Source of the DNA: Raillietiella orientalis
Lineage: Eukaryota
Reading direction: 5' to 3'
DNA length: 64,000 bases
Assembly (NCBI GenBank): GCA_036172245.1
Contig: JAYWIR010000112.1
Span: 62,001 to 126,000, forward strand
Position numbers and translations under genes: made by a program. Shown here piece after piece: positions 38,830 through 64,000 of this stretch (positions are counted from its first letter, which is position 1; each line of letters starts with the position of its first letter). The notes below the pieces were generated by a model. The model saw nothing but the letters and a program-made list of their open reading frames with translations, was not told where the DNA came from and did no database searches.

Positions 38830-41039
38830 GTCGCAATGGTAAGCTCCCAGGAGAAATTCAATACTGAATAGTAAGTAAAGATCATTCGGATCGGCGTTCG
38901 CGAGGAACCTTTTGCCATACTGCCTGCGGGCAGGATTGAATATACGAAGACACGGTACTCAAACGCGGCACTCGTGCTGCGTCTTCGGGGAGGGAATGCC
39001 CCTCACCGAAGTTCCTTTATCGCAAAGATTCCGGACACAGAAGAATGAATTGCCCGGAACTTGCTAGAAATTGGTTCCCATCGGCACTTTCACATGGTCA
39101 AAGAGACCACAGCAGAAAAAGTCGCTGCCCCTCAGAAGGAGTCGGGTCCGCGAAGACAGCCAAACAGCGGAGCAATGCGCGGCTATTGAAACAGGCATCC
39201 TTGTCGGAAACGCCCTGAAAGGACGAAATCGCGGCGGGGAAGCCAACAAAGAAGGGCGCAAGGGCTTGGCTGTTACCGGCCCCGCCCCCGCCACCGAACG
39301 CGGAAACAGCACTCTGCGCGAGATGTCAGAAAACTGCGGGAAAGTGATGCACAGAAAGGCGGCACCAATGGGAAAACTTCTGGCGCCGTTCCGTTGTCCG
39401 CTTTGGCTGCTCCGAAACCCCGAAGCATCGCATAAGCCGCGCACATGGAAAACAAAGCCGTAAGCAGAGGATGGGAAAAATACGCCGGAGGACGCCGCTG
39501 CATCTCTGTCGCGGCAGAAGGAGAGCAATCTCCCAACTGCTACCGAGATGTCGCAATTGCCAAATTTAAAAAGTAAGCCGACCGCAACACCCCAGGAGGA
39601 AGTGGCGACACACCTAGAGTCTCCCGCATTGAAAGTCGCAAAAGCTTTAGGAAAATGTAAAGGCGCATGGAAGGCTGTAGATTAGAGAAAGGAAAAAACT
39701 CCAAAAAAATACCTGCAACATCCATCCCTGAGTACTTGAAAAGCAAGGAACAGCTGTTCAATTAAAAGCACTCGTGCAGTGGCTCCTCCTGCCTTTGTAA
39801 ACTCCAGCGCCGCCAACGGGTGTAATTGCACTGTGAGCGCAGGCAATACAATTCCGGTGAAAGCAGGCGGAGGCGAACGCACGTTGTTCAGAGAGGATGA
39901 GACTCCGTAAAGTGGTTCGATAGTGCCTCTAAACGACGCGTTACGCTCACTGAAGCGGAAGTCTGCAAAGCTGAAGTCTTCAGAAGTGAAGCACTTTCCG
40001 CAAAATGGTGAGGGCACACCCTGGAACCCAAAGATTCGCTACCCGGGTAGGAGCACTCGAGCACGTGCAGCACTGTGAAGTCCCTTGGCGACCGTGCCCT
40101 TCAACCCGCCGTGCTGCTTACTGCCCGTTCTTCCGACGGGGCAAGCACCACGGCCTCTCATTCCCAAACATACTGAAGGCATTTGCGCCTTCTCGACGTG
40201 TTGCCGTGGCGTCTTGGAACGTCAACGGACTCCAGCACGACCAGAATAGGCGTCTAGTGGCAGGAGCTCAGCGCACCTTCGACTTAACGCTCCTGCAGGA
40301 GATTCACATCATCTCCGACGAGCAGGCCGCGAAAATGAAACGGCCCTCGGGCATGAAGCTTCTTTGGCGGTGCGGCGTCGACATCCTCGTAGGAGGAACT
40401 TCGGCGAGAGCGGTGCACAGTGCTCTCTTCGACATGGAAGGCCAACTGGGATAGCCCGTACGCAATTGGTCCTACTCAGTCGACCTGGTCGTATCGAACG
40501 TGTGCTCGACGAGCGGTGCTGGACAATGGGCCGGAAGGATTGACATCTGCAGTACCCTTCAGAGCCACTGGCTTCCTCTTTCTCACCCTAGAGTGGCTCA
40601 TCTCATTTCTGGGTACTTGAACGTCCACCAGCTTTCTGAGTGGGGCTTACACAAATGGGAAATGTTGCATGAAGACGAGATGTGCAAGTCCATGCACGCG
40701 TAGAACTTGCTCGCTCGCTACTCTGATATGGCGGCATTGCCGGACCATGTTTTCCTCGATGCTTTCTCGTGTGGGTGGGAGAGGTCCCATGCCGTCCGTG
40801 CTTTCAGATCACAACAGGCTCAAGTTCGAGTTGCTCCCGCCAAGCAAGGGGCCTCCGAACACTGTTAGAAGGATGGCGAAGGACTGGCCTAGCCACCCGG
40901 AGACGGCGCAGTATCTCCACCAGTAGCTTCACGGCATCGCCATAAAGGAGCTCTCGGACTGAGACGATGTGAAAAGATCGATTCGCTAGTTCTGCTGCTG
41001 GTTTTCCTTGTGCAAGCTACCGCGTTGCTTCGGAGAGGG
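38830..41039 (+). mobile_element. Element I: decayed, internally deleted LINE of the D lineage (ORF1 remnant plus endonuclease)
   Basis: 38888-38985 matches D ORF1 RIGVREE..PAGR..TK.R..NAALV.RL, then jumps to the second knuckle. 40170 onward reads SRRVAVASWNVNGLQHD..FDLTLLQEIH..VLSDHNRL. It is cut at 41039 by element H. Confidence 0.88.
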
Positions 41040-41412
41040 TTTTTCACCCGGGTGAGCCGGGGCTTTTATTATGAAAAATTTTACAAGAAAATTTTATAAA
41101 AAAGTCTTAATTTTTGCCACGTAAAGTTTTCCCTTGTTTTGTTTTTCAGTCGGGACACATGGTCCGACTGTCTTGAGGCACTTGTCCTTACCAACCCGCA
41201 GGCCGATAAGGTCCTCTACACTGGCTCAGGGGCAGAAAAAACAGAAATAAAACAAAAAAAAAGAAAACGCCTGGGGAGACAATGTTTTTGGGAGGGAAGG
41301 GGGAAGGGAAGGGATCACGGTACGCCATGAGGAGGCCTCTGCATCCGGTTCCGGATGAGAACAAGTGCCGGTAAATGGTGTTGAAGTCAGCGCCAACGGC
41401 AGGCCTTCTCCC
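41040..41412 (-). mobile_element. Element H: antisense 3' end of a LINE (last ORF2 codons, 3' UTR, terminus), E lineage
   Basis: The reverse complement matches 44730-45116 and ends AATAAAAGCCCCGGCTCACCCGGGTGAAAAA. Confidence 0.9.
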
Positions 41413-43989
41413 CATGGAGGTGAAGGCACCTACACCGAAAGCTCCGGCTCCCGCGCCAGCGAGGGACTACAGCGCCGTGGTCGCCGCACCATCTGCAGCG
41501 GCCATGGCCGAGACCCAGGCTCACAAGGCCTACAACTACAATCCGAGCCTGGTGTATAAGGTAGGCCGGGTGTTCGATGATCGTGTGGCGCGCTCCTTCG
41601 AGCAAGAGCTGCACCGTTTGAATGTTAACAAGGATGATATGTTGAGTCTCTCCATCCGCAGCGGGGGCAGCATTTCGATCTGACCTGCAAAGAAGCAGGG
41701 TTGGCACAAAGACTGCTGCGGACCCCCGTTAGGATCGAAGGCCGCCAGATCTTCCCTGTCCCGTTGGACAACTCAATAGTAGTCCACCTCCGCGGAATCA
41801 CCCTACGGATGCACCCGAGCGCCGTCAGGGCTGAACTGAGCGAATTCGGCACCGCGCACGCACTGTGGGCGAAGCCCAACAGACTCCGTACTTATGACGG
41901 ACTTCTAAGCGGGCTCGCTGCTGCGCGCATCACGGTAGCCAAGGACGTGGGGATTCCCCACAAACTGGTTGTCGACGGAGATATTGTCCACATCTGGTAT
42001 CTGGGGAAACACAAATACTGTGATGCTACAAGGCACGTGAAGAAACGCTGACCCAACATCACCTGCCGCAAGTGCGAGGCAACCGGGCACACGGAAGAAG
42101 TGTACCCTAAAAAGACTCCGCGCGCGCTGGCTGCTGCCGCAAGCGGCACCAAAGGGAGTAAAAAGAAGTCTAGCAAGCCCAGGCCGTCGGCTGAAAAAAG
42201 GTTGACGCAGAGCCAGCTGAAAAGGCCGTGCCGACCACCCCGTCTGCGGAAACGCAGGCAAATGGGGTGGAAGGAGAAGACCCTAACTGACATAAGGTTA
42301 GCAATAGAAGAGAGAATTTAAAAAAGAAGAATAAAGTCCCTACAAAAACCGCGAAACCCGCGATAAAGCAAGGACTGAAAAAATGCACGATCTCACTGAA
42401 GCGTCTTACAAACGCTGAAGTGCCGTCCGAACAGTCCGTTGCCATGTGCAACAACGCTGACAGCCCCGTTCTCTGTGCAAACAGCGGTCGAGAGCTGCGA
42501 CGAGGGGGAGAGCCGCCAAGACGCGGACTTTGCAAAAGCCGCCTCCGAGCTCGCCGCCTCCGAGCTCGCCGCCGCCGTTCCGCAATCACCTACAAAGGGC
42601 AGGAAGAAGGCCGTTCGACGTCTGGCCGAAAGGAGGGGGACCGGGACCTCGTACTCGGACCCGGGGGCCGGACACGCACCATCCGCGTCTGCACCCCCGA
42701 GGAAGACCGGACGGAAAATCCGTAACCCGAGGAGGATCGTCTCCTCTGAGTAAGGGGAATCCTCCGAAAAAGAGGGTGCGGCGAGCGTGGGAGAAATGGA
42801 CACGAGTCCTGAACTCCTACGCCCGGTCGAGACGGAGCCGATGGAGGCGGAGGGGGCCGTTGAGGTGCCCCCACCGCAGAGGAAAAAGAAAGCATCCCGC
42901 CCGATAGTGAGGCGGGAGACGCTGCCTCACTTTCCCAGCAGTAATGCCGGGACTCGCCACCTGCCGTCAAATCCGCATCGCCAGTTGGAACGTCAACGGG
43001 CATTGCGATGACGGCAGGAGACGAGACATAGCTGCCACCTTGCAAGCCTTCGACCTCGTGTTGCTGCAGGAGATCCATCAGATCTCCGCAGAACATGCGC
43101 GGGAGATCGAAAGGATGGCAGGTGGTCAGCTTATGTGGCGATGCGGTCACCGCCGTGCGCGCGGGGTCGCTTTCCTTCTGAAGTCTGCCTTACAACGTGC
43201 GGTGCGGAAAGTTCGTTTCGATGAGACAGGTCGAGTCGAGCAAATCATCTTCAGATAGTCCGGCTCGATCGATCTCGTCGTCACGAACGTGTACGCGCCG
43301 AGCGGCGGTCACGCGCGAGTGGCACGGACGGCATTCTTCCGTGCGTTCAAGCGCGACTGGCTGTCGGAGGCAGGCGTGCGAAGGCCGCACCTAATAGCAG
43401 GCGATTTTAATATTCGTCTGCTATCAGGTGCCGCGAGAACAGAGGCCACCCCGGTTAGAGATAGCGCCGGTGCATCGCTGTTGGCGGGGACGCCGGGATG
43501 GAGCGGAGCGTGGACCACGTCTTCCTCGACGATCACCTGCACTGTCGCATGGGCAGGAGAAGTAAGATACAGTCCGCTGTCTCCGATCATTCCCGTGTGG
43601 AATTCGTCATACGCCCGCGCGACAGAGGGCCCCCCTCGCAGGCGTGGCGTTAACCAGGGGACTGGCTGACGAAACCAGGCGCAGCGGAACACTTCCGCGC
43701 GTACTTGCAAGGTTTCAGTCTGCAGACTCTCGACGACTGGGACGATTTGAAAGTCTCGGTCCAAGAGTTCTGCCAGCAGTCCCCTATGGACCGTCTTTTG
43801 AAAGGATTTGGAGAAGTTGTTCGGAGCGAGAGGGCTTACCTGCAGGCCCGTCGTTACACGCGAACACACGACGTCCGAAGACTGGCGGAATTTAAAGCTG
43901 GGGCAGAGCGGCAGGCATAGCAATCCGGGTCTGCCAGCTTGCTGGACCACCAGGATCGGGAGCGCTCGGCCCCAACCGCGATCAGGCAC
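41413..43989 (+). mobile_element. Element F: 5' half of a LINE (ORF1 41414-42944, ORF2 start 42944-43989), disrupted
   Basis: ORF1 MEVKAP..PSLVYKVG..VHIWYLGKHKYC is homologous to B ORF1. A TAATG junction lies at 42942-42946. ORF2 reads IRIASWNVNG..DLVLLQEIH..NVYAP..LIAGDFN..WDDLK, with stops and frameshifts, and breaks off at 43989. Confidence 0.92.
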
Positions 43990-44200
43990 CGACCTCTGGT
44001 AAGTGGGGAAACCCCGCTATTGTGGCTACTTCAACGCAGTAGGGCATTTGCGCAAGCAGTGCGCTATCATTCAGTGCCACTTGCGCGGAGTTAAGGGACA
44101 CGTTCGTCGTGTGCGCCATAAACGTCTCACCCTGGTGCCACCTGCAGCCAAAATGGCGCAAGTGAAAAAATCGAGAAAGGCCTAAATACCCAAAAGAGAA
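43990..44200 (+). mobile_element. Element C segment 1: ORF1 zinc-knuckle region (5'-truncated)
   Basis: DLW*VGKPRYCGYFNAVGHLRKQCAIIQCHLRGVKGHVRRV matches B ORF1 DLWYLGKPPNCGYCNTVGNLRKRCPNIQCHLCGEKGHVRRV. Its assignment to the same copy as segments 2-3 is inferred from colinearity. Confidence 0.8.
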
Positions 44201-45116
44201 ACTGGCCCGCCCCAGCCGCCATCTCCTCTTCTGGACGTCCCGGGAACTAGCGGACGCTAGTACCCTGAGTGTCCCGCCGAATGGACTTTCACGCTGGGGC
44301 GCGCTGCTCGAAGTACCTCCGGAGGAGGTGAAGTGGCCCTTGGCGTCGTGGGATAACGGCACCCTTCCCCTGCAGTGGCAGGAGACGGCGTTGCTTCTGC
44401 TCCATTGGCGACTGTTAAGCAGAGCGCGCTTGTCTCGCTGGACACCGGGGAGTGTGGATGCTAATCGCACAGACTGTGGGGAAAGAGAAACTTTCCTCAC
44501 TTGATCATTGAGTGCGTTGCCCTTCGCGATATGTGGGACCGACCCTCGTCGATCTTCAACATTCCGTGGGGCGACCCGAAGAACATTTTCCGACTACCGA
44601 TGCGGGACTCCCTGCTAGCTTCCGGGTGTGTAGCAATGCTCTGTTGCATACGCGGAATACTGGACAAGTGGACCGCGTCAAGGAGAGGACATTCCAGTCG
44701 GAATGCCATCCACTGGGCAACCATCTCCTTGGAGAAGGCCTGCCGTTGGCGCCGACTTGGAAAACATTTACAGGCACTCGTCCGCATCCGTGACCGGATA
44801 AAGAGGTATCCTCACGGCGTACCGTGATTCCTTCCCTTCCCTTCCCTTACCGAAGGAGATATTCCCCCAGGCGTTTTCTTTTTTTTTGTTTATTTTTGTT
44901 TTTCCCCGCCCCTCCACCAGTGTGGAGGACCTTATCGGCCTTCGGGTTGGTAAGGACAAGTTCCACAAGACATTCGAACCATATGTTCCTACTGAAAAAC
45001 AAGAACAACAACAAAAAAAAAACAAAAAACAAATCATGACTTTATTATGAAATTTTTGTTTGTGTGTATTTTGAAAAATTTTAATAATAAAAGCCTTGGC
45101 TCACCCGGGTAAAAAA
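44200..45116 (+). mobile_element. Element E: 5'-truncated LINE (ORF2 C-terminus to TGA 44825-44827, 3' UTR, terminus)
   Basis: WTSRELADAS..WGALLEVPPEEVKWP..DCGERETFPHLIIECVALR; T-rich UTR; ends AATAAAAGCCTTGGCTCACCCGGGTAAAAAA. The left boundary is uncertain by about 25 bp. Confidence 0.9.
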
Positions 45117-45250
45117 CCCACTGTTGAAAATGTTAGCGTGGGGAGCGAACCGGCAGAAGCGTACGTCATCGAGACCGTGATCGATGACGCCGCCTTCGAG
45201 CGTGCGGCGGAGGAACTCGCTGCATCGTTGCAGCCAGACCCCTCCAAGGC
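45117..45250 (+). mobile_element. Element C segment 2: ORF1 tail up to the B insertion site
   Basis: DDAAFERAAEELAASLQPDPSKA matches B ORF1 GDAAFAQAAEELAATL and continues in register at 57541 (KAGKKAVRRPA). Confidence 0.85.
45241..45250 (+). repeat. Left target-site duplication of element B (partner 57541-57550)
   Basis: CCTCCAAGGC vs CCTCGAAGGC (9/10). Removing B restores the C ORF1 frame. Confidence 0.85.
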
Positions 45251-45280
45251 AAGTTGGAGGACGTGTTTTTCCTTCACTCC
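45251..45280 (+). promoter_or_regulatory. Conserved LINE 5'-end motif GGACGTG + pyrimidine tract (putative internal promoter); second copy 47539-47568
   Basis: AAGTTGGAGGACGTGTTTTTCCTTC (B) vs GAGTGCGGACGTGCTTTTCTTC (A), each directly inside the TSD. Function is inferred. Confidence 0.5.
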
Positions 45281-45344
45281 TCAAAGAGTAGTTGGAAAGA
45301 GGTTTTTCTTGTGTGTGGTGCATTGTGTACATCGTCGGTGTCCA

Positions 45345-47070
45345 ATGGCCACGATGCCAGAGGACACCGCGATGGAGGTGGGCGTGGGGGAGACTAGTTC
45401 ACCCCCACAGCCTACTGGAGCAGGGGCAGCCGCCCCGGAATCATCCATGGCCACGCCGAGGACATGAAGCGCGATGGTGGCCGCGCCCTGTGCGGAAGCC
45501 ATGGCAGAGATGGCCGCATACAAGGCCTCCGTGTACATGCCATCGCTTGTCTACCAAGTAGGCAACTTGTTTGACGCATTTAGCAGGGCCCTGCAGGAGG
45601 CGAATATACTAGAAAAGGAACTTGACGGCCCCTCCGTCCTCAGCAGCGGGCAGCGGGTCGAGGTGGTGTGTGGGGACGTCACCTTGGCTCACCGCCTGAT
45701 TCATGCGCCGCTGAACGTTAACGGCCGCAAGATCCTGCCAGTGTCAACGGACCACTCCGTGGAGGTCCACATGACCGGCATTAGCAGCCGCATGGCTCGC
45801 TCTGCGGTCGGAGAACTACGAAAGTTCGGGGAGGTGCACGCACTGTGGCCCAAACCCACCATTTTTGACGGCTACGGTAGCCTTTTTGGTGGTCAGGCTG
45901 CAGCGCGGGTGACCGTAAAAGAAAATTGTGGACTTCTCCACAAACTGAAGGTCGCGCAAGAAAGCGTGGACCTTTGGTACTTGGGGAAACCACCAAACTG
46001 CGGATACTGTAATACCGTGGGAAACCTCCGTAAGAGGTGTCCTAACATCCAGTGCCACCTGTGCGGGGAAAAGGGCCACGTTCGGCGTGTGGGCCCCAAG
46101 TACCCCACTCCAAATCCCCCTGCCGCAAAAAAAGCGCAGGGGAAACGTGGCTCGAAGGTCGCAAGACCTAAGGCGGAAAGTGTCCGGCAGAAACTGCTAG
46201 CACCTCAACTTCCGGCGCCAAAGCCGGAGGATAAACCTTTCGAAGTAATGGAACGGGAAGAGGGCGTGCAACTTGTTGCTCCCAGAAAAGCCAAGAAAGG
46301 CCCATCCGCGAAGAGCGTAAGCCGGTAGGTAAGCCGAAAAAACCCGGTCCTCGCTCGAAGACTCTGCGCGAGTGCACGGTGGCACTGGAACGAATCGTCG
46401 TTTCCGAGGCTGCCACCCGAAGCGACGAGCCTCCCCTCGCCGTTTCCGCCGCTCCCGAGGTTCGCGACGTCGAACCCTCTGATTATACAGAGGGTGAGCC
46501 GCGCGACATAGCGCCGGTCGAAACCGGGGACGCTGCGTTCGCGCAGGCGGCGGAGGAGCTCGCGGCAACACTGGCCGAGCGTGAGAACCCCTTGCGCAAG
46601 GCCGTGCGAAGGCCGGCTCCGTCGAAGAAGGCCCCCACAGGTGAGTGCGACCTGGGAGACGGAAGCACATCCTCCTCCTCGGAGGCACCCCCAGGAAGTC
46701 GGGACGCAAGTCCCAGAAGCTCAGGAGGCGCCTCCACTCCACCAGCGAGGAGGAGAAGACGGAAGCCGTTGCCAGCGTGGGAAGTTCGGATGACGAATTC
46801 CCACGCTCGGAAACCGTCGATCCGGCCACCCTCATGGAGGAGGGTGAACAGGGGGGTGAAGTCCCCTCTGCAGGCGTCGACCCTGAACAGCCCGCCCCCA
46901 TGGAGGAGGGTGAACAGGTAGGCGCGACCCCACCTGTGGGTGACCCGCTCGACGCGCCGTTACCTATGCAGGAGGGGGACCAGGTGCCATCAGCACCTGA
47001 CCCTCCTCCTCCACCTAGCGTCCCGCCTCACCAGTTGGCGGACGCCGCTTCGCCATTTTCCCAGGAGTAA
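45345..47070 (+). pseudogene. Element B ORF1 (RRM-like region + two CCHC-type knuckles + acidic/Pro-rich tail), disrupted
   Basis: ATG at 45345, in-frame TGA at 45465, ORFs 45474-46328, 46379-46921 and 46645-47070. Knuckles read CGYCNTVGNLRKRC and CHLCGEKGHVRRV. Confidence 0.85.
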
Positions 47071-47538
47071 CACCTGGGCTCGCCAGTCGGCTTCGGATTC
47101 GCGCGGTCTCTTGCAATGTTAACGGTCTGCGCGACGACGGTAACAGGCGAGATACAGCTGACACCCTGAGGGAGTTCGACCTCGCCCTGTTGCAGAAGAT
47201 CCATGTGATCACCACGGCAGACGTGGAGGAGCTCGAGACGATCGCAGGCGGTAGGCAGTACTGGCAATGCGGCATCCGCAACACTTGCAGGGACGCGTTC
47301 TTCGTGAAGCCGGCCATCGACGCTGCCGTGAAGGGCGTGCGCTTCGATGACGACGGTCGGGTCGGTCAGCTGATTCTCGGCTGGTCCGACTCGATCGATC
47401 TCATCGTTACGAATGTGTACGCCCCAACCGGTCAACAGGGATACAGCAACCGTACCAGGTTGCTTGAATCCCTGAAGCGCGAGTGGTTGGCGCACACGAG
47501 CGTGCGAAAGGCTCACCTGATAGCGGAATATTTTAATC
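47070..47538 (+). pseudogene. Element B ORF2, N-terminal endonuclease part
   Basis: VSCNVNGL..FDLALLQKIH..NVYAP..HLIAEYFN; the GDFN-equivalent motif is cut by element A. Confidence 0.88.
47530..47538 (+). repeat. Left target-site duplication of element A (partner 54201-54209)
   Basis: ATTTTAATC vs ATTTCAATC (8/9). Removing A restores B ORF2 ..HLIAEYFNLRL.. Confidence 0.82.
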
Positions 47539-47616
47539 GAGTGCGGACGTGCTTTTCTTCGCTCTCGTCTCCGTGCTTTAATCCGCTTCATCTTGGCGTC
47601 GTACATTTTGACGACG

Positions 47617-49546
47617 ATGTCGACCCAACTTGAAGCTACTGAAGTTGGAGGAAGGGCATCCGAATCTGCAATCGCGAAACCAACGGCCGCCTCCACTTCG
47701 TCTATCTCGCCAATGGAGAAGAGTTTTGCTGACGTTGCTGCCACAGCAGCCGTCAAAGGGAAACCACTCGACGAGTCGGAGTTGCGGGCATACGTAGCCC
47801 AAGGCTATAGACCTGCTCTCCGATATGAGGTGAGTGGTTTTCTTTCTGCGCGCGACGGGAATCAGTTCAACGATGAACTGACCCGTGTTGGCGTGCGGGA
47901 GGAGGACCTTCTCGCCATTATGCCCGTAAAAGACATGGGCTATTTCAAGGTGCGTTGCAAAGACGCTGCACTTGCGCAACGCTTACTGCGCACCCGGTTG
48001 TCGATCCGTCGCCAGAAGGTCTTCCCGGCCGCCATGGACGACTCATTTGTGGCGGAGATTTTCGACATCGAGTTGGAAATCTCCGATATTGATATTCGGA
48101 ACGCGTTGGCGAAATTCGCCACGGTCCATGCGCTGTGGAGGGTGCGTAGCAACCGCAAGGACTTCCCGTCCATACACAGCGGAGTCGCTGGAGTCCAGCT
48201 TACAATGCCGGACTGCCGTCTGCTGACCACCAAACTACAGGTGAAAGACACGTTCGTTCACCTGTGGTTCGTGGGCAAAGTAAGAACGTGCGAGCAATGC
48301 GGGAAGGAGGGGCATTGTTTGGATAAATGCCCCTCTGGAAAATGCCTTTATTGCAAATTATCCGGGCACCAATTGAAAAATTGCCCGGATCTTTTGCGAA
48401 AAAAGGCAGCCGCGGAGCTTCATTTTAAAAAACAAAGCGCGGATAAAAAGAAAAAATCTGCGAAAACCTGGAGAATCCACGGAAGAAATTCCGAAAAAAC
48501 GCGAGGCGGAATGTCGCCCCAAAGCAGCAGGAAACCTCGCACGCGAAGCCCTGCGCGCCCCCTCTCGCTGCAGGGGAGCCGCAAAAGAAAGGGTGCGGGG
48601 AATCCGGGGCAATAATAAGTCCCCCTAGGCGCAATAGCGGTCCTTTCCAAGCACGCCCGGCTCTCTCGAAGTTCGAGCAATCGAGCAACCGGCGGGGACG
48701 ACAATGGACAACGGCGGTAAGGAAACTTCCAGTACCGTCAGATCCATTCCTTCACCTCCTGCAGTGGCTGAGAAGCCCAAATCGGGTAAGAATGGTTGTG
48801 CCGTGTCGACTTCGAAAGTCGGCAAAAAAAAATCCGCGTCGCGAAACAACGCCGCGAAAGCGGAGAAAAATCTCAAGCCGTCGCAGTCGGAGAGCAAGCT
48901 CTCGACTGGCGCGGATGCCATGCCAACGAAGGGATTGAAAGCCATTCCGAAGGCAACGTCCATGACGAGCGTGTCGAAGCCATCCAAAGTGCTCCCGTCC
49001 AAAGACGCGGATGGCTTCAAAGATGGCAATGGAGCACAATCTCCATTTACGGCGCCACGCGAAGTGAGGAACCGTAATGAAGTAAAGAAGACTTCAGCAA
49101 AGGTCCTTCGTGCAACTGCGCGTGAGCACGCTGAAAACGCGCGCGCCGGGAAAGCAGCCGTCACCAAAATCGATGCTCTGGAGACGGAAAAAGACAACAA
49201 GACAGCTGTCAATCCAGCAGAACCTGTCACTACTTCGCGGAAGGCCGGAACCCGATCGAACATGCGCCGGTCGGACTCCGAAATGGATGCCGTTCCGATC
49301 ACCGAAACGAGGACAACTCGTTCGAAAGCGTGTGCGCGCCGATCAAAAGTAGGCAGCCAGGCAACGCTCGCCGCGAAGCCACGCGAAGTCTCCACGAAAC
49401 CCGACGGGGTTAAGCCTGGCGTGGAGGCATTTCATGCATGCAGCACGACAGAGGACGGTGGCGAACGTCCCCTCCAGCCAGTCGTGCTGCTCGCCGTCTG
49501 CTCGCCGGATAAAGCGAGCAAAAAGCCGCCACCTTCCCAGCAGTAA
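47617..49546 (+). pseudogene. Element A ORF1 (RRM-like + 2 CCHC knuckles + long K/S/A-rich tail), frameshifted
   Basis: ORF 47593-48615 has intact CEQCGKEGHCLDKC and CLYCKLSGHQLKNC. The tail continues in ORF 48704-49546. Confidence 0.9.
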
Positions 49547-52500: not shown

Positions 52501-53887
52501 TGGGCGCTTTCGGCGCAGCCGAAGCGTGGGCGGACTGTCTTCAGAAAGCAGAGTTGGCCATCAGCCCGTTCTTTAACGGCAAGTTTACCTTGCAGGAACG
52601 GGCGACTATTTGGAACACCTTTGTGGCCCCCCTCCTCCGTCCCCTGTTTTTTGTTTTGGACCCCCCCTATGCGGCAAAACAGCGGGCTAAACGCCTGCTG
52701 AGGAACGCTCTCTGGTGTCCGGCGAGATTCTGAATCCGCCTGAATGATTTGTTAGCTCCGCGTTGGGATGCTGGTTTGGGTATCCTGACAATGGAGCGAA
52801 TCGGACTGCAGGTGCAGTTCCGACTGCTGGCACTGTGTGCCCAGCTATGGACATCCCCCCTGTGTGTGCCAGCCCGCATTCTCCTGCGGAGATGCGCCGG
52901 CAGCGGAGGATTTCTCTCGCTTTTGCCGGGCACTCAATACAGGAAGCGGGGTTTCGGGTTTCCATTGCGGCAGTTGACCGCACTTCTGGAAGCTTACTCC
53001 TGGATCTCCTGCTGCCCAATGAACTTTGAAGCTTGGCGTCAGGAGTCTGTTGAATCCTGGGCGGCGTTCCAAGGAATACGCTCTGAAGGTCTTCGCCCCT
53101 GCGCCAATTTTTTCCACGATGCTTGGAAGAAGTACTGCAGGACGAGGTGAAGTTTTCTACCCTGGCTGCCACGCCTCTTGCCGCAGCGCTGTCCGCCCTC
53201 AGTGCAAGAAACGACAGTTACCAACCGGCGAGGTGGGAGGTTTTTTGCACGATAGCGGGAAAAACCAAACTCCTTGGCGCCTGGATGACGAGTGAGCTGG
53301 CGGACGCCGCCACTCCTCGTGTTACTGCCAAGGGACTCCTCCGGTAAGCAGAAGAACTTGCTGTCACCTCCGAAGAACTTGTGGTCCCTTCACAGTGTAT
53401 TAAAATTTCGCCGCTCCCCCTTGCTTGGAAACAATCCGTGCTGCTTTTCGTTCACTGGGGTTTTCAGTGCAACGTGCGTTGGCATCGTGACTCCGGGGAA
53501 CTTGCGTCTGCGAACTGCGTTCGGTGCGGATCGACGGAGTCGATTCTGCCCCTACTTCTGGACTGCGATGTCCTACAAGGACTGTGGCGTAGGCTGGCAA
53601 CAGCACTAATGCATCCCGTGGACACCGCAAGAGACTTGCTGCGACGATTCTTCACGCCAAGAGGGCTGTCCCTAAGAGCAAGGATTGCAACCATCGGTTG
53701 CATACGCGCGATAGTTTCCGTCCTCCAGGCGTTAGTAATCAACGGACAGCACCAAGAGGTAATCAGCAAAGCATCCTTCTACATGAGAGCATCCGCTAGA
53801 TGGCCTCATTTAGCAGAGGAGACAAAAAGGAATCTCGCCGCAATACACCGCCGGTTTACACACGCTCAGCAGTGGCCAACCCGGTGA
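49546..53887 (+). pseudogene. Element A ORF2 (APE endonuclease, reverse transcriptase, C-terminal finger), disrupted and split by G
   Basis: Motifs in order: WNVNGL, NVYAP, AGELN, LDHVF, SDQH, WRPITLVNSDVK, DLHKAFD | insertion | GIQQRDSLSPLLF, AYADD, YLGV, CVRCGSTES..DC. Several stops and frameshifts are present. Confidence 0.92.
51264..52060 (-). mobile_element. Element G: antisense 5'-truncated LINE (~800 bp; ORF2 C-terminus + 3' UTR) inserted in the RT of A
   Basis: The minus strand reads DAATP..RWGALLDVPIEHLKWP..DPNCVRCGERDSLPHLLVDC and ends CATAAACGACTCGGACAAATCCGCGTGAAAA. Confidence 0.9.
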
Positions 53888-54200
53888 TCATTGCCCTACC
53901 CTCCATAAACTAATTTTGTAGTTTCTTTTTACACCCGCGTCTCCATAGGCTCCGTAACATTTTAGGTGCTCATCGTTTAAATCCCCGTGAGTACGGAGCC
54001 TAACCAAAAACCCGTTATCCTTCCCTCCAGTTTTTTATTTTTGTTTGTTTCCCCTTATTCCTCCCACGCTGCGAGCGGTTTGTTTACCAGGCCTGCGTGC
54101 CGGTAATTTTTCTATGTTCTCTGTCGTTCTGTTGGTTCGGGACATTGTCCCTGACCAGTTTATTATTATTACTAAACGCCCCGGCGTGACCGGGTGATAA

Positions 54201-57200
54201 ATTTCAATCTCCGTCTGCCAACAGGTGAGCCTGAAACACAAGTGAACGCGATGAACGAGTTGTGCGCCGCCAAGCGTACGCGCAACTTGATCGAGGGTGA
54301 GAGTGGAATGGTCCGCAGCATCGACCACGTCTTCAGCGACGCTGACCTGTGTTCACGGGTCGGCAAACGGGGGAAGATGGCGTCGACGCTGTCGGACATT
54401 TCCCGGCTAATTTTCGAGATGCAAACTCGCGAGAACGGATCCCCATCCAGGGAGTGGCGTCTGCCGGGGGACTGGACGCGACTCTCAAGAGCAATGGAAC
54501 ACCTTCGCGAATTCCTGAGAGGCGTCACGCTCCAGAGTCTTCCAGATTGAGACGTTTTTAAGGCCTCGGTACGGGATTTCTGCTAGCAGTTTCCCTTGGA
54601 CCGCCTGCCTCTTGGATTTGGTGATGGCCCTTGCAACCATCGGGCCTATTTACAGGCCGGCAGGAACGAGAGAACCCCTAATGTCCGTCGCCTGGCCAAG
54701 TACCGCGCCGGGTCCGAACGGCAAGCCTGGCAATTCGGGTCGGCCAGCTTGCTGGTCGACCAGGGCCGGGAATTTTCGTCCCCGGCGTCGGTACGGAATC
54801 TCGTGCGTTGTTTTTATTCCTCCCTTTACGCCAAAACACCACTCGAACAAGACGCCTCGCGGCGATTGCTCATGAGTGGTTCCGTGGCGATAGGGGAGGA
54901 GGAGAGAGAAAGCCTCGATGAGCCTTTCACGACCGGTGAAATTCTCGCCGGTATCAAAAGACTCAACAGGCGTAAGGTGCCAGGGGAGGACGGCTTGCCC
55001 GCGGAGTTCTTTCAGAGTTTCGCGGAAGGGCTGGCACCCCTGCTGGTTCAGCTGACAAAACTGATCGGAGACGAAGGCCATGTTCCCGCCTCGTTTCGGT
55101 CAGCCAGAGTGAGGCTCCTTCCGAAAGAAGTGACTTTAGAAATTTGAACGACTGGCGTCCGATCACGATTGTGAATACGGACGCCAAGTTGGTTGCCAAG
55201 CTATGGGCTTCGCGTCTGAGGCAGGTGGCAGAATCCATAATTAGCCCGGAGCAGACATATGCTGCTCCCGGGCAAAGTATGGATGCCAACCTCTTCCTCG
55301 CGAGCACATGGATGCACGCGCAGAGATGTCAGAAGGAAGGGGAAGGAAAAATCGGCAACTTCACTTTGGGGCCGCCAGCAAAGGAGGGAATGGAATCCCG
55401 GGCGGGGAAGGGGGCCATAGCGCTCGGCGTCGATCTCCATGAGGCATTCGACTGTGTTGACCAGGAACTCCTATTGGAGCTCCTGGTTCGCATGGGCTTC
55501 CCGCCCTCCTTGATTACCTACCTGCGCTTTTGCTGGCGAAATGCGATTATCTGTATCTTTTTCAGCAGTCAAAAGGTGTATGACGTGCCGGTGCGGTGGG
55601 GCATCAGGCAGGGCGATAGCCTTAGTCCCCTGCTCTTCAGCACCTACTTTGAGTTGGTGCTGCGAGCATATAGGGTGACTTTGGTCTCCTTGCCGAGCTC
55701 GTGCCCCGGCACGCACGCCGTATCGGCCCATGCCTACGACCTTCTGCTCCTGTTACCTATGTCCACACCGGCGAAGGCGGTGGGAGACTTCTTCGATCTG
55801 CTCAGCCGTGGGACCGCACTGCAGGTCAAAAGGGCGAAGTCGTCGGTGGTGCCAGTAGTTGCGGCGTGGGCAGGGCAGCAGGACTGGTTCCGTCTGGGGA
55901 TCCCCACGGCGAGGTGCCTCAAGTACCTTGGTGTGCCGTTAAGAGACTGCTCCCCTGGGGAAGCGTGGTCCAGCTGCCTTCAAAAAGTTGAGACGGCAAT
56001 CGGACCGTTCCTGGAAGGCAAGTTTCACTAGACGGAACGGGCCGCGGTTTGGAACGCTTTTGCCGCCCCTATACTCCGCCCCTTCCTTTTTGTTTGCCTC
56101 GCCCTCAGAGATTGTAAAAAGAGGACAAAGAACCTCCTCCGCATAGCCCTTTGGGGCAAGGGGAGGCTCCGAGTCCCTCTGTAGGACTTGTGCGCTCCGC
56201 GTCGGAACGGCGGTCTTGGCCTCCTGACGCTGGAGCGCGTGGAAATTCAGCTGCGGTGGCGAACCCTTGCCATCGCTGCGAAGATGTGGAGCACCCCTTG
56301 GTGCGTTCCGGACCGCCTCCTCGCCAGGCAATTGTCCTGATGCGAAGGACTCGCGTCGTTGCTTCTGTTCTCTGGCCGGAAGATTCGAAGATGCGGCCTT
56401 ATGCTCGGACCAATAGCAACCCTGGAGAAGGCTAACGCTTGGATGGTTCGTGGCTCCGCCAACTCCTCCGCCTGGCTGCACGGAACTGCTGGTACCTGGG
56501 CCAAGCAGAACCGGAGGAGAGAAGAAAATATAAACTGCCTGCGAATCGGCCCATACGCTAACCGCACCCTGCGGAAAATACTGGAATTTCCCCGGAGTCG
56601 CCGGTGAGCGTTGACGACCCCTCTTGCTCCGGCGATGCCTCACCTCCTAAGGGAGATTCCGGACCGCCAGAAGCCGAGGTGGCAAGTTTCCTGCCGGATT
56701 GCTAGGAGAAAGATGTTAAGCGGCTAGACAACTGGTGAACTGGCGGACGCCACGACCCCGAGCGTCCAGCCGCATGCATTGATGAGATGGGGCGAGCTGC
56801 TTGCCATCCCTATGGATGTGCTGAAGTGGCCCCCGGTACTCAAGGAATCCAGGATCCTGCCCCTTAAGTGGCAATAGTCGGCGTTGCTACTGTTGCATTG
56901 GGGATTACCCTGCAACGCACGCCGCTTCCACTGGACACAAGGTGCTTTGGATCCTGAGTGTGTCAGGAGCGGAGAGCGGGAATCGCTCTCTCACCTTATT
57001 GTGGACTGTGCTGCCCTCCGTCCCCTCTGGGAACGGTTCGGGACTACCCTCGGGCTCCCTACGGGCAGCACCCCCAGAGACGTTCTTCGGCCCCTCTTCG
57101 TGAAGGACGCACTGCAGCCAGCCGCAGCCATCGCAGCCTTGTGCTGCGTCCGTGGCATCGTGGCAGCATGGAGCGACGCCAACAACGCAGGAGTGGGTCC

Positions 57201-57330
57201 ACACGCGAGGGATGTCATCCCAGACGCCCAACGCTTCTTGCGGAGAGCTGCCGGATGGGTCCATCTGGGGGATATGCGGATGGACCATGAGGGCTTCCTT
57301 CAACGGATTGGCTCTCCTCACAGCGAATAG
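54201..57330 (+). pseudogene. Element B ORF2 remainder (end of EN, RT, C-terminal finger), disrupted
   Basis: Resumes FNLRL..SIDHVF..LSD. ORFs 54596-55147, 55144-56031 and 56884-57330. The catalytic YADD is eroded to HAYD. Confidence 0.92.
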
Positions 57331-57509
57331 TGATCCCTTCCCTGCACTCCAACTTCTTTTGTTTGTTTAGTTTTTATTTTTCTTTTTGTTTTATTCTCAT
57401 CCTCCTTCGCTGCTTAGGAACGCTACGCTGGGCTGCGTCCAGGCGTCCCGGAAGGTCCCGTGCGTATAGCCGTGAGAGGAACCTTGTACCGCGGATGTAG
57501 AGTTTTAAC

Positions 57510-57540
57510 AATAAAAGCCCCGGGCGTACACCGGTGTAAA
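57510..57540 (+). terminator. LINE 3'-terminal signal: AATAAA + GC stem-loop + short A tail (representative of six copies)
   Basis: The same arrangement occurs at 41040-41070(-), 45086-45116(+), 51264-51294(-), 54171-54200(+) and 58084-58114(-). Confidence 0.75.
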
Positions 57541-58083
57541 CCTCGAAGGCTGGCAAAAAGGCAGTTAGGCGTCCGGCCTCCACCGAGGAGTCGGTAACTT
57601 CCGATCCCGAGGCGCAGGCGGAAACGAAGTTTCCATCTCCGCATCACATCGCCGGAAGGCTGGAAGGAAGTCCAGCAAACCCCGGAAAGCCCTCCTCCAT
57701 GCCTAAGGCGTGGAGATGACTTCCGACCTTCAGATAGCCATGAGCGTGGGAAAATCCCAGGAATCGTCACCCGAGAGACCACCACGCACAGACACGGAGG
57801 AGATGGAGAGGACTGAAGCCGAAAAGGTACGCAAGGTGCCTGAGGACGCCAAAACCCTAATGATCATCTCACCCGCCTCGGAAGATGCGAATTCCCCCAC
57901 ACCGTCACCTTCCCGGCAGTAATGCGGCGAATCTCCTCCCGCCGTCGTCTGCGCATCGCCCTACAAAACGTAAAGCCATGACAGAAGCCAGCAGGAGACG
58001 AGACATAGCAGCCATTCTAGGATCGTTCGACCTTGCGCTGCTGCAGACGATCCATGTGATCTCTGCAGAACAAGCGCAACAGA
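57541..58083 (+). mobile_element. Element C segment 3: ORF1 end, TAATG junction (57920-57924) and start of endonuclease, cut by element D
   Basis: KKAVRRPA..PSPSRQ* followed by MRRISSRRRLRIA and RRRDIAAILGSFDLALLQTIHVISAEQAQQI. Confidence 0.88.
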
Positions 58084-58419
58084 TTTCTCACCCGGTCACG
58101 CCGGGGCGTTTATTCCGTATAACATAACCAAAAAAAGCAATTATACAAAATAAACCAGTTGAAAACCAAACTCCCAGCCGACGACTGAACCAGAATAAAG
58201 AGAATATTGCTGGCACGCAGGCCAGAGTAACAGTTTTGCGAACGGTGTGGATGGTCGGGGAACACAAAGAAACCAAAATAAAATAAAAACAATGAATAAG
58301 GAGGACGGGATAAGGGTCTTTGGGATCGCTCTGGAAGACACGGCGATAAAAGCATGGGCACCGGAAATTTTACCGAGCGAACGGGGACGGGGTATGGGTG
58401 GGCGAGAGGTCGCAGGGGT

Positions 58420-61400
58420 CACCGGATAACGCCGTTCTGAAAGGTTTGTAAACCGGCGATGTATGAAGGTGATGTCCTCATTCACCTTGTCACGAAGATG
58501 AGACCACCTTGAAGCCTTCTCCATGAATTGAGCTGCAAGCAGGTGAGCCTCTATTCGCTGCGCTGACAACTCCAGGGCTTAGCGAGCCTTCACGATGGCG
58601 CGAACGCAACACATGGTTGCGACAATCGCGCCAACCGAAACTCCATTTCTGCTGAAGAAGCGCCGCAGCGCATCAATGGCAGTGCCTCCTTGTGGCATGA
58701 TGGCCCAAGTGAGCCTTCGCCACAGTTCCCGGAGGTAAATGCAGTCCAGCAAAAGGTGCGGAAAAGACTCGATCTCTCCGCACCTTAATCAGTTTGGCTA
58801 AGCAGCTCCCCCAGAAACGATGCTTCGCTGCCTATTACAGTGTAATGCACAATGTAAAAAGAGCAGCACATCTTGTTTCCACTTTAGGGGGAACACGGAG
58901 CTATCCAAACAAATGGGGGAAACCACTATCTCTCCGGGGTCACACTTAAATGTTCGCCCCACCGAAGCAGGCCCTTCGCCCGATTCCGAGGAGTGGCGGC
59001 TTGCACCAGCTCCTTTGTCGTCCAGCTGCCGAGAAGCTTACTGACTCAAGCTATTTTGCAGGAGAACTCCCATTCCGCCGGTAGGCAACAGTAGTTGCTT
59101 GCCCTGAGAGCAGACAGCGCTGCGGAGAGTGGTATGGCGGCCAAACGATCCGACAACTTCTTATCCTGCATGACTTCGTCCATTTGATGACTGAGGAGAA
59201 GTCGCAGGCGTCGAAGATCTTTTGGGCGCGTTCCTTCGGAAGCTGCCCACGATGAAAAAGATTCCTGCCGCCATGCATTAATGTTCATGGGGCGGCAGGA
59301 GATCCGGCTTTGGGCTTCCAGCAGTGAGGACAGCTGCCTCAGCGGTAAGCCAAACTCTATTCTGGTGTGCCGAAAGTGGGGTAGCAACGAAAGCAGTCCT
59401 TCGGATCCCGTGCAGCGCCTCAGCGTGCGGGTAAGCACCACAGCGTACACCACAGCTTGGCACAGTGCCGCAGCATGTGAAACTGAACCTGCAGTTCGAT
59501 GCTGTTTAAGTCGAGGATGCCCAAGCCTGCATCCTGACGCGGCGCCACCAAGTCTTTAAGTCTAACACAAGATCTTGCAGCGCCCCACAACGCTTTGCGT
59601 AGAAGGCGCTGCGCCCAGACTTGGACTTCCTGGGGGAGTGGACAAACAAAAAACAGGGGGCGAAGGAGGGGGGCAAAGAAGGTGTTCCATAAGCAGGCTC
59701 GTTCCGGCAAGACGAACTCGCCTCCTGAAAACGGGCCAAGTGCACGCTCTGCCTTCCGAAGGCAGTCCGACCACGCTTCTGAGATGCAGAAGTCGCCCAA
59801 CGGCACGCCAAGGTACCTGAGGTACCTAACCGTGGGGATCCCCAGGTCGATCCAGTCGGACTGCCCCTCCCACGTCGCACCCACCGGAACAACCATACAC
59901 TTACTCCTGTTAACGCTCACGCCCGCACCGCGACGAATCAACTCAAAGAAGTCTTCAAGCGATGTCGCCGGGGTGGAGATGGGCAACAGGAGAAGCAGGT
60001 CGTCGGCATAGGCTGCCTCGGCCGGCGTACCTGGACAGGAGCTCGGCAGGTTGGCTAGCGTCAGCCTGTAAGCCTCCAGCACCAATTCAAAATAGATGCT
60101 GAAGAGCAGTGGGCTTAAGCTGTCACCCTGCCTAATTCCTCGTCGTACCGGCACGCCGTACACGCGACAGCCACTGAAAACAATGGATGTAATCGCTTGG
60201 CGCCAGCAGGAGCGCAAGTACGCCAACAGGGATGCCGGAAGACCCATACGTTCCAAAAGCTCAAGAAGAAGCTTTTGGTTCACGCAATCTAAAGCTTTGT
60301 GCTGATCGACTGCAACCACCAAGGCTCCCGGTGTCTCTCTTTGCGTCTCGCGCCTCCGTCGGTAAGAGATCGCACGTGTCGCTTCCGCACGACGATCCAC
60401 CGCCACACGATGCTGCAATAGCAGCCATGTGCGGATGAACAAGAGATTCGCGTCCATGGACCGCCCAGGAACAGCTTATGTCTGCTCCGGACTTACCAAG
60501 GATTCCGCAATGCTACCCATCCGCGTTACCCAAAATTTCGAGAACAACTTGACGTCCGAATTCACTAATGTGATCGGACGCCAATTGTTCAGTTGGCGGA
60601 AATCACCGCCTTTCTGCAGGAGACGCACCTTCGCTGAGCGAAACGAGGCGGGGAAATCGCTCGCGTCTAGCATCAGCGACGATAGTTGAAGCACCAGGGG
60701 GATGAGCTCCGCGGCAAAACACTGAAAGAATTTTGCGGGGAGCCCATCTTCGCCTGGCGCTTTTTGTCTCTTGAGCCCCGATATGGCCGATGAAATTTCC
60801 TCTGCCGTGAAGCGCTCATCAAGACGCGCGCGTTCGTCCTCGTCTACAACAGGTGTATCAATCGGCAGAAGCACCCGGGAGAGGCTGCGTTCCGTCGGTG
60901 CCTCTGCATACAGAGAAGAGTAATAGCGCCTGACTATCCGTCGCACGTCGGCTGGAGCCGACCATTCCCGGTCCTGGTCGTCGAGCAGAACTGTCGCCCC
61001 TGACTGCTAGACCTGGCGCTCAGCCTTGGCCTGGTAGTCGGATTATCGACCAACGTCCGCGCGCCTGGAAGAAAGGCGGGCCTGCAGAAAATCTCCGCTG
61101 TTGGCTACGCCCTCTCCGAAGCTGAGCGGAAGCTGGTGCAAGGGAAACCGGCAGCAGAACTCGCGGACCGATCTTCTCAGATCGTGCAAGTCCTGGAGCT
61201 AACTTATGGCAAAGCCGAGGACGTACTGGCAAAGATGCTCAGCCGCCTCAGGGTGGCTTAGCCAGTCTGCCGGAATCCTCCAAAAACAGTTTGGAGGCCT
61301 CTTTCCTGGCGGAAGCAACTCTCACTCGAGCCAGTTGTGGTCTGAAAGCACGGACGGCACAGGACCTGTCCGACCCACTCGAGAGAGCAGGTGTTCATCA

Positions 61401-62002
61401 AGGTATACTTCGTCCGGCGTTGCTGGCATAACAGGGTCGCTAGCGAACAAGTTGCACGCGTGCACGGACACGCACATCTCTTCCGCTAGCAACTTTTCCC
61501 TTTTGTGGGATCTATTCTCGGAAAGCAGGTGGACGTTAAAGTCCCCCGCAATGAGATGGGCCACAGTAGGGTGAGATCGAGTGAGCCACTGGCTTTCAAG
61601 GGTACCGAAGAACTCAATCCTTCCGGTCCATCGTCCAGCACCGCTCGTCGCGTACACGTTGGTTACGACAAGGTCGATCGAGTAGGACCACTTGAGTACA
61701 AGCTGTCCCACTCGGCCTTTCGTGTCGAAGCGAACGCTGCACACCGCTCCCGCCAAAGTTCCTTGCACGAGGAAAGCGACGCCGCACGTACGTGCAACGC
61801 CGCACCTATAAAGTAGCGTTCCGCCCGCGCGCCGTTCGATTTTGGCAGCGTGCTCTTCGGAGATGCTGTCAATCTCCTGCAGGAGCTTCAAGTCAAAGGC
61901 GCGCAGAGCGTCAGCCACTAGTCGCCTCTTCTCCTCGTGTTGGAGCCCGTTGACGTTCCATGACGTTACGGAAACACGACGAGAAGACGCGATTGCCCTC
62001 AT
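58420..62002 (-). pseudogene. Element D ORF2 (EN, RT, C-terminal finger), disrupted
   Basis: ORFs 61322-62005 (SWNVNGL, LLQE, AGDFN, SDHN), 60476-60946 (PGEDGLP, WRPITLVNSDVK) and 59420-60457 (GIRQGDSLSPLLF, AYADD, YLGV). The 3' limit is approximate. Confidence 0.93.
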
Positions 62003-63884
62003 CACGGCTGGGAAAGCGAGGCCGTGGTGCTCGCCTCACCCGGCGAGCGGGCAGTAAGCAGCACGACGGGCTGGAGGGCACGGTCGCCACCGGCCTCAAC
62101 TGTGCTGCACGTAATCGGGTGCTCCTCCCCGGGTGCAGAACCTGTGGGTTCCGGGGTGAGCACTCGCCGTTCCGCGGCGAGTGTGTCACGCCTCAGGGTT
62201 TCAGCCCTTCGGGCGCTCGCTCCCTCGCGAGTAACGCGTCGTTCAGCGGCCCTATCGGACTCCTTTGCGGAGTCTGATGCTCGCACGATGGACGTGCGCT
62301 TGCATCCGTCCGATTCCACCGGGATGGTCTTCTCGGCGGTCACATAAGCAAACTTGCACGCGTTGAAGGCGCTGGCTTTTTCCTTGGAAGAGGCACAAGC
62401 CGCGAGTGTTTTCGTATTCCCACGACTGCTTTTTCCCTTGGAAGAGCTCAGGGATAAATGTTGCGGAGCTTTTTTTGGAGATTTTTCTTTCCTGCTCTCC
62501 ACAACCTTCCATTCGCCTTCGCGATTTTCGGAGGCTTCCGCGACAGTAGTTGCGGAAACCTCCGGGATTTTCGCTGCGTTCTCTGGGGGCGTTGCTTCAT
62601 CTACGCCTTTAAAAGGCGGCAACGGAGTCACCTTCTTGACAGTCGGGAGATTTCTCCTCTCTTGCCGAGTCGGAGATGGGGCGACTGCATTCAGCGTCCT
62701 TTTGCTCGTCGCAACGCTGCTTTTTACGGCTTTCGTAGCCATTGCAGAGGGGTCTGCGCTGCAGTGGGGCTTCCGGAACTGGGTAGGGACAACGGAACGG
62801 GGCAAGAATTCTTAGCACTGTTGCGATCTTCCTGTTTTTCCATCTTTCCATCCAGGGTGTTACGGAGATTTCCTGGTTCCTGGCTAGAAGAGGTGCTTGC
62901 GAGTTCGGCAGAGAGAGAAGGCACGGCACACGTCAAACCCTTGCGCCCCTTTTTAATTGGCTTCCCCGCCGTGACTTTCGCCTTTCTGGGCGTTGCGGTC
63001 GGGGATGCTTTCTTTTCATCCGCGGATCGCTCGTGGTTTTTTGCGAGTTTCTGTGGACGAGGTTTTTTATTTGCCGCTGCGGCTTTTCGTGCAGTGGTCT
63101 CTTGAACCCGACGAATTTCCGCTGCGGCTCTTTTTCTTGCAAGTACCGGTCACTTTTTGATTTCGTGCCCGGAATCTTTGCAATAGCGGCATATTGGAGA
63201 GGGGCACTCTTTAATTCGGTGCCCATCCTTTACGCAATGCTCGCACTCGCGAGTCTGGCGTAAGAACCACAGGTGAACGACCGTGCCGTTCACCTGCAGC
63301 TGCTCAGGCACAACACGCCTGTTCGCGACGGTGATCCGCGCGGAGGCTTGTCCAATGTGGACAGAGGGGAAATCCTTTAGAGGATTTGGCCTCCTCCACA
63401 GAGCGTGCACGCTGGCGAACTTCGCAAGCACACTTACGACATCGCGGTCGGAGATTTCCGGTTCGATTTCGCACAATTGAACGACAAAAGAGTCGTCCAG
63501 CGCGGTAGGTAGGACTTCCTTGCCATTGATGGTCAACGGCGTACGGAGAAGGCGCTGCACAAGTGCTGCGTTCTTGCACCGAATCTTCGTATATTTCATC
63601 CTGCCAGCAGGCATTATGCTAAGGAGTTCCTCCTCGCGAACGCCGATCCGGACGAGCTCATCATTGAGCTCACGACCGATTCTCCCGTTAAGGGGCCCAC
63701 TGACCTTATTACGGAGTGCAGGCATGTATCCTGATGACACATATGCCTGGAACTCCGCATCGCAGGGTCCTGGTCTTGAAGAGGTAACGGCGGCGTAACT
63801 CCTAACCGGGGGCGAGGAAACCATTACGGAGGATGCGGCCACTTCAAGTGCAGCTGAAGTGCATCTAGTGGCTTGCTCCTCCAC
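62002..63884 (-). pseudogene. Element D ORF1 (RRM-like + 2 CCHC knuckles + basic tail), frameshifted
   Basis: ORF 63150-63884 has CEHCVKDGHRIKEC and CRYCKDSGH and aligns with A ORF1. The tail is ORF 62002-62805, ending in a TGATG overlap. Confidence 0.9.
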
Positions 63885-64000
63885 ACTATCCTGTGTACTG
63901 GTGATGTTGCACTATGCTACTTGGCAGATTGCACAGGAACACACAAGTGCGAGCGAAAACGCAGGCACAAAGTTGGCCGACCGTTGCCGCGGATAGACGT

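Follow-up and report, generated by a model that had tools for sequence, protein, structure and literature searches.

Sister LINE families of Raillietiella orientalis insert at fixed sites in one another and build a nested cluster

The stretch of DNA considered here, called the window throughout, comprises 64,000 nucleotides of Raillietiella orientalis and corresponds to positions 62001-126000 of a contig of 156,909 bp (JAYWIR010000112.1, our contig C112), in a genome assembly of 210 Mb in 491 contigs. Its right-hand part, from 38830 to 64000, consists of long interspersed nuclear elements (LINEs) of the L1/Tx1 group inserted into each other; a preliminary description of the sequence had held that it contains nothing else, and 25,167 of these 25,171 bases match LINE copies elsewhere in the genome or contig; reverse transcriptase (RT) and APE endonuclease domains are encoded there. 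That description is confirmed in part: the nest is real yet shallower than was claimed, and the cause proposed for it was wrong. The families keep the letters given to them earlier, M being a subfamily of C and X an additional family found at other loci. Residues of the second open reading frame (ORF2) are numbered on the intact 1,199-residue ORF2 of family F (locus L033), and “extended” positions carry the window numbering on to the contig end, up to 94909. All genome-wide counts were drawn from one contig-level assembly in which centromeres are unmapped.

Four levels of nesting are proven on both sides: G lies in A, A in B and B in C, and D also lies in C (Table 1). A interrupts the endonuclease of B between the copies of a 9-bp target-site duplication, ATTTTAATC (47530-47538, where the 5' part of B terminates) and ATTTCAATC (54201-54209), and B interrupts ORF1 of C within a 10-bp duplication, CCTCCAAGGC (45241-45250) and CCTCGAAGGC (57541-57550); both junctions, already recognized in the preliminary description, were checked against empty sites in other copies. 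D stands antisense in the endonuclease of C with a 12-bp duplication bearing two mismatches, in which the host piece on its left terminates (58073-58084), and C picks up again directly past D, at extended position 64035, to run to ORF2 residue 685. Excision of A, B or D plus one duplication each restores the host reading frame, as had been stated for A and B and now holds for D as well. G had been placed correctly in the RT of A, but this junction has lost 55 bp of A, lacks a duplication and puts the frame out of register; because these bases are lost, excision of G leaves the frame of A unrestored. Identity to the best outside copies is about 95% for the inner elements A, D and G, and for the outer ones 91-92% (B), 90-93% (C), 89% (F), 85% (H) and 76% (I, with a range of 71-76%).

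The outer joins proved less secure than had been thought. The segment 43986-44240, taken earlier for C, is 81% identical to a B-like family and has no match to C-family ORF1, so that C does not abut the broken ORF2 of F and E is joined to C only at its 3' side; of the two elements said to interrupt C, D does so and E shows a 3' junction only. At least five levels had been claimed, and up to seven if F lay in H and H in I. Four are demonstrated, the junctions of E, F and H being one-sided and the distal halves of F, H and I absent from the contig. The rightward extension suggested for the missing halves recovered C from 64035 on, but those of F, H and I were not found in the remaining 30.9 kb up to the contig end, where the best matches are 70% to the 3' half of F and 74% to an H-type upstream part. 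F breaks (window 43973-43986) where three other loci hold antisense inserts (L028:4310, L174 and L186), and ORF2 residue 362-363 is a common hot spot, which no fewer than two further tail types have entered antisense.

Table 1. Features of the window (positions in window numbering; dup., target-site duplication).
Feature	Position	Strand	Remarks
275-bp satellite array	1..25390		Continues back to contig start (~318 copies, ~87 kb in all); neighbour outside the LINE system
Element I	38830..41033	+	Old 5'-truncated A/D-like copy; ORF1 pieces and ORF2 residues 1-307, remainder missing
Element H	41034..41411	-	3' end of E/H family, terminal hairpin towards I; junction one-sided
Element F	41412..43985	+	ORF1 and ORF2 residues 1-362; without 5' end and 3' half
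ORF1 zinc-knuckle fragment of B-like family (not C)	43986..44240	+	
Element E	44241..45113	+	3' 870 bp of E/H family; 3' end meets C ORF1, one-sided
Host C, ORF1 portion left of B	45114..45250	+	Ends in left dup. of B (45241-45250)
Element B, 5' part	45251..47538	+	5' motif GGACGTGTTT, ORF1, endonuclease to residue 167
Element A, 5' part	47539..51263	+	ORF1, ORF2 to residue 582 (RT motif DLHKAFD)
Element G	51264..52067	-	5'-truncated C/G-family copy, antisense within DLxKAFD codons of A
Element A, 3' part	52068..54200	+	AATAAA-hairpin terminus
Right dup. of A (54201-54209) and element B, 3' part	54201..57540	+	With terminus of B
Right dup. of B (57541-57550) and host C	57541..58084	+	ORF1 end, endonuclease to residue 66
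Element D, full length	58085..64000	-	5' end at extended 64022; antisense in endonuclease of C

Insertion is sequence-specific, each targeting family placing its 3' end at a single nucleotide of a single host motif. The target of each family recurs genome-wide at the same nucleotide, and the earlier proposal of targeting to chromatin or region rather than to sequence finds no support; the junctions of the window are unlike one another because every family has its own target. Flank-free queries were made of the 3'-terminal 500 bases of families D, A, B, G and E, and flanks were taken at 30 loci each (the window's own copy omitted from the counts and two short flanks classed by eye). Of 29 D copies, 23 lie antisense at host residue 67, 4 stand in tandem at the 5' end of D itself and 2 lie elsewhere; A is at residue 164 of B in 19 cases and in tandem in 10 (29/29); B is in C/M ORF1 in 21, with 4 in tandem and 4 elsewhere (25/29 on target or in tandem). 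G occupies the DLxKAFD codons antisense in 14 cases (residue 583) and in the sense direction in 2 (residue 574), with 10 in tandem (26/29), 2 elsewhere and 1 without flank. This motif bears TCGA at each end, and sense-oriented G copies sit at the upstream TCGA in L136 and L155. For E, just 5 copies shared a single site.

Since such searches are biased towards long, young copies, the count was redone with tail patterns that do not depend on copy length, 15-25 flank bases per end being classed by eye. On target or in tandem were 55/62 ends of D, 78/84 of A, 39/44 of B, 11/13 of F, 45/49 of X and 110 of the 142 listed for G/M (145 found; two complementary patterns differing in the last base, summed). 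Over the six families, 338 of the 394 3' ends listed occupy the fixed site of their family or stand in tandem on their own 5' duplication, a tally that takes in 2 D and 3 A ends at seemingly the same motif in a further host. The target specificity of these families, 77-93%, is above the >20%-of-flanks criterion given in PMC4494074. In E/H, which acts as a control, all 18 flanks are unlike one another past a common CC, no fixed site appears and the share of like flanks stays below that mark. Empty sites were found for A, B, D and G, and the target-site duplications measure 9-14 bp. It is scarcely credible that these junctions are products of misassembly, or of related LINEs recombining at conserved coding motifs: targets frequently fall in conserved motifs (GDFN, DLxKAFD) and the outer junctions of the window resemble deletions, but a 3' terminus is joined to an internal motif, mostly antisense, with two-sided duplications and restorable frames, and junctions of these types are met on many contigs. 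Among sequencing runs, no RNA run was listed as containing the elements. The short contigs of one DNA sequencing run (share 0.19) contain empty-site joints for B and G and no piece crossing the nest; as they do not span it, that run is no test of the assembly.

Insert and host were then compared at 22 D, 22 B, 15 G and 20 A on-target loci with full flanks, the window included and D locus L063 omitted for its short host piece. D copies are 98.0% alike over two host clusters themselves 77.0% alike, B copies 96.1% alike against 76.1% for their host clusters, and A copies 96.7% alike against 92.5%, A being younger than its hosts; the 15 G copies are spread across 8 host clusters and both orientations. 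Inserts that are near-identical (96-98%) in hosts only 76-77% alike show that insertions recurred independently. Furthermore, the 12-bp duplication of D matches the local host variant at three paired loci, and hosts carry differing subsets of inserts. These observations bear on co-amplification, in which junctions would have formed once or a few times and then spread by segmental duplication or retrotransposition of compound units. Such a history is suggested by element and flank distances that correlate positively inside three of the five host clusters (Mantel r 0.66, p 0.025; 0.41, p 0.031; 0.70, p 0.076), by an old 9-kb duplication within the contig and by identical flanks at three E loci; nevertheless, a single pair is 99% alike on both sides across the five clusters tested, and the cross-host data refute co-amplification as sole cause, so that we hold it very unlikely.

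The nested, self-accumulating clusters that had been described in the window are found genome-wide for on-target ends. Among 345 ends, with uniform placement as the expectation, 125 of 293 on-target ends have an end of another family no more than 20 kb away (4.7% expected), and 38 clusters of at least three ends hold 152 of the 345; off-target ends are not enriched, with 4/45 within 20 kb (4.5% expected) and 5/45 within 50 kb (10.7% expected). This strong clustering, the presence of 158/345 ends on contigs numbered above 60 and the closeness of the window cluster to a satellite would fit chromatin or regional targeting (centromeric, as in the Zepp elements of green algae), nesting being a by-product of local density. 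We consider that explanation highly improbable, given sites that are family-specific and exact to the nucleotide, the lack of enrichment of off-target ends around clusters, and as many as four clusters in one contig (C26, with two each in contigs C1, C33 and C76). A regional bias may be added to sequence targeting. The analogy with centromeric Zepp clusters, drawn earlier, is not borne out: there are several clusters per contig and no poly(A) tail, and the first 100 exact matches listed for a satellite 28-mer fall on only five contigs.

The targets connect the families into a web. A enters the endonuclease of B, B enters ORF1 of C/M, and D enters the endonuclease of C/M and X; F is inserted in X at residue 1072 and X in B-like elements at residue 278, and C/G sites lie in the RT of A, F, C/G- or X-like, B-like elements and others. 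C4 and G are 90% and 89% identical to V, respectively, and at two loci the ORF1 of C follows a G-type 5' end, which makes C and G one family; C/G into A, A into B and B into C/G is thus a closed cycle, and the four levels of the window are one turn of it. Most insertions go into other families. Tandems on an element's own 5' duplication (D 10/62, A 21/84), which run head-to-tail, form because this duplication retains the target. A target mimic within the 5' end of D was also considered and rejected, the 12-bp duplication being explanation enough. A B-like family, 76% identical to B, enters X at residue 305 in 3/3 loci (L035:1810-7390), which is likely a target switch between close relatives.

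The elements share one anatomy. ORF2 encodes an N-terminal APE endonuclease, an RT and a C-terminal zinc motif (Pfam Exo_endo_phos, RVT_1 and a weak zf-RVT), with catalytic residues kept, and ORF1 encodes zinc knuckles (zf-CCHC); this domain order, the knuckles, the duplications and the 5' truncation are those of the L1 group (L1/Tx1). Atlas neighbours of ORF1 with CCHC and ZCCHC3-type RNA-binding domain families are a lead only. Several families have intact frames, with stop-free ORF2 of 1,199-1,312 residues under the standard code, so a non-standard code, also considered, is unneeded. In all five families read, AATAAA stands about 25 nt upstream of the element end and is followed by a CCGG hairpin, after which 2-5 A residues close the element; none has a poly(A) tail. 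L1, for its part, uses poly(A) to prime at T-tracts. The motif GGACGTGTTT stands about 10 bases inside every intact 5' end (e.g., window 45258, 47544 and L006:13) and is a candidate internal promoter. The local families are mutually 64-79% identical in nucleotide sequence, and in a quick tree 33 local RTs form their own long-stemmed clade (SH-aLRT, an approximate likelihood-ratio support value, 100) against 45 outside proteins, no labelled Tx1 among them. Only two of the best 150 outside representatives exceed 36% identity (74% and 66%), metagenome loci reach 22-51% over mostly short matches, and no Zepp-named protein stands among the matches listed for the local proteins. Methylation-type decay in D is flat (C-to-T 3.8% at CG, 3.2% at CHG and 2.6% at CHH).

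The endonuclease departs from its relatives at one point. Its catalytic aspartates are 41-43 residues apart, against 59-73 in 108 of 109 outside relatives (median 63), and about 20 residues before the second catalytic Asp are missing from all local families aligned (eight local variants compared). From alignment and modelling, these residues appear to be the region of the T192-S202 specificity hairpin of L1; the predicted structure at the gap is strand-short helix-strand, with no hairpin, at a model confidence (pLDDT) of 59-81, a single-sequence endonuclease model with pLDDT 44 having been set aside. The best match in sequence and fold is human L1 ORF2p (PDB 9k6i, 8uw3, 1vyb), first in fold for the ORF2 model (pLDDT 80), in which endonuclease, RT and C-terminal zinc motif follow in the same order; it differs in its low identity (about 20%) and in having the T192-S202 hairpin region, absent here. 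A protruding β-hairpin loop is present in the endonucleases of L1, Tx1L, R1Bm and TRAS1, and not here. In L1, as reported in PMC1950540, the T192-S202 hairpin shapes target choice, and its deletion leaves 10% nicking and no retrotransposition.

We read these data, with a probability of about 0.8, as the outcome of a lineage-specific radiation of L1/Tx1-group LINEs, during which several families each became fixed on one short sequence of a sister family. Target-primed reverse transcription would begin just past the common 3' hairpin, at a site picked by ORF2p, most likely via the endonuclease despite the missing L1 hairpin loop, and perhaps aided by 1-5 nt of pairing of the RNA end. Every new copy would supply new sites, so that piles grow wherever a first copy lands, and outer halves would later be lost by deletion; the habit may persist because other LINEs offer harmless landing sites, a safe haven. 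That the site is read by ORF2p we judge somewhat better than an even chance. The same web could instead be built if the RNA mainly chose the site, read-through 3' ends that carry some of the parent target pairing to DNA nicked by an endonuclease of loose specificity, without the hairpin. The short spacing of the aspartates and the hairpin-free model, the effect of loop deletion in L1, the position of AATAAA with poly(A) left uncopied, and the first 3-5 target bases mostly kept at off-target D and G ends all lean towards such guidance. Flanks, however, match variant hosts from the first duplication bases (A at contigs C57 and C76, and many synonymous variants under G), so that little parent sequence is copied, and a nick-site preference accounts equally for the off-target cores; RNA-guided choice is therefore unlikely, though the most serious of the rivals.

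Several observations weigh against fixed sister-family targets. The endonuclease lacks the very loop that governs target choice in L1. Twenty-five of 142 G/M ends lie elsewhere, mostly with only TCG(A) in common, and 7 more are ambiguous. Six of the eight tail patterns, all but those of G/M, drop one last base and so miss roughly a quarter of the off-target ends. The correlation of element and flank distances in three of the five host clusters means that part of the junctions were co-amplified. Finally, a LINE ORF stands at the junction in only 2 of 21 tail motifs picked mostly as isolated matches on contigs C1 and C2, and most of these 21 belong to other, dispersed families; the AATAAA-hairpin 3' motif as a whole has 1,472 exact matches genome-wide, 75 of them along C1, many isolated and from further families. 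A bolder extension of the proposed radiation, tentative and in our view less likely than not, would make the web self-sustaining and non-transitive: a hairpin-less endonuclease would have been retargeted repeatedly to essential coding motifs of rivals, each insertion would be a safe landing and the knockout of a competitor as in rock-paper-scissors, and site choice would be non-canonical, without the APE loop.

The satellite at the left of the window is separated from the LINE cluster by 13 kb that hold older LINE remnants and a non-LINE block. A 28-mer taken from it matches the genome 891 times, the first 100 entries of the listing being confined to contigs C23, C112, C134, C138 and C203, and exact satellite matches are spaced 550 and 1100 bp apart, a hint of higher-order structure. 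The older remnants occupy window 26751-28956 in both orientations, 1.4 kb from the edge of the satellite, and include a decayed 3' terminus (27706). The non-LINE block, about 9 kb (window 29803-38900), has a second copy 47 kb away in L007/L008 (extended 77387-86575) at 88% identity; its ORFs gave no convincing Pfam match. Either copy leads into one and the same truncated start of element I, beyond which the LINE piles differ: the first goes on through L006:1890-10000 and L007:1-3400 to extended position 77387, and the second reaches the contig end (L008:5200-10000). These remaining piles contain, formed by other copies, two further G-at-DLxKAFD junctions and one further D-in-C junction.

The closest known systems are the target-specific LINEs of the Tx1 clade described in PMC4494074 (Tx1L in Tx1D, Tx1-Mar in Mariner-N4, Tx1-8_Crp and Tx1-4_AMi in LTR [long terminal repeat] elements). 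They share with the present families an APE-type endonuclease with RT, a zinc-knuckle ORF1, sequence-specific insertion into other repeats and tandems around the duplication, but the targets named in that account are DNA transposons, LTR elements, RNA genes and microsatellites, whereas here each family has a single site in the coding sequence of sister LINEs, and the targets are arranged in a cycle. Zepp of Chlorella and Coccomyxa and ZeppL of Chlamydomonas are likewise L1-clade LINEs that enter copies already present, and their nested clusters are rich in 3' ends, according to PMC3446292, PMC8226300 and bioRxiv 2025.03.28.645958. Zepp is presented as a single family nesting in itself, with one centromeric cluster per chromosome and a poly(A) end (PMC3747384); here, unlike Zepp, at least six families target each other, with several clusters per contig, no poly(A) and dispersed sister families. 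The group II twintrons of Methanosarcina acetivorans, as portrayed in PMC4424553, are comparable in their repeated site-specific homing into related retroelements, up to five deep and balanced by deletion, at a perpetual safe homing site. They differ in being self-splicing archaeal introns guided by RNA pairing, not LINEs; as the present LINEs do not splice, each insertion disables its host. A search of the literature outside subscription journals, Repbase Reports and the primary Zepp papers turned up no description of LINE families that use each other as targets.

The nest indicates that large blocks of nested LINEs can self-assemble by sequence-specific rules alone, without a chromatin cue, and the rules are given here. 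At least six close relatives with different targets of 9-14 bp, together with a non-specific sister family, make up a comparative series for the integration specificity of APE-type LINEs and a naturally occurring panel of enzymes that differ in target site, and the loss of the loop thought to govern specificity sharpens the question of how that specificity is achieved. Since several families retain intact reading frames, these claims are testable. One family directs its insertions to the DNA encoding a conserved RT motif in its sister families, plausibly a case of conflict between transposons.

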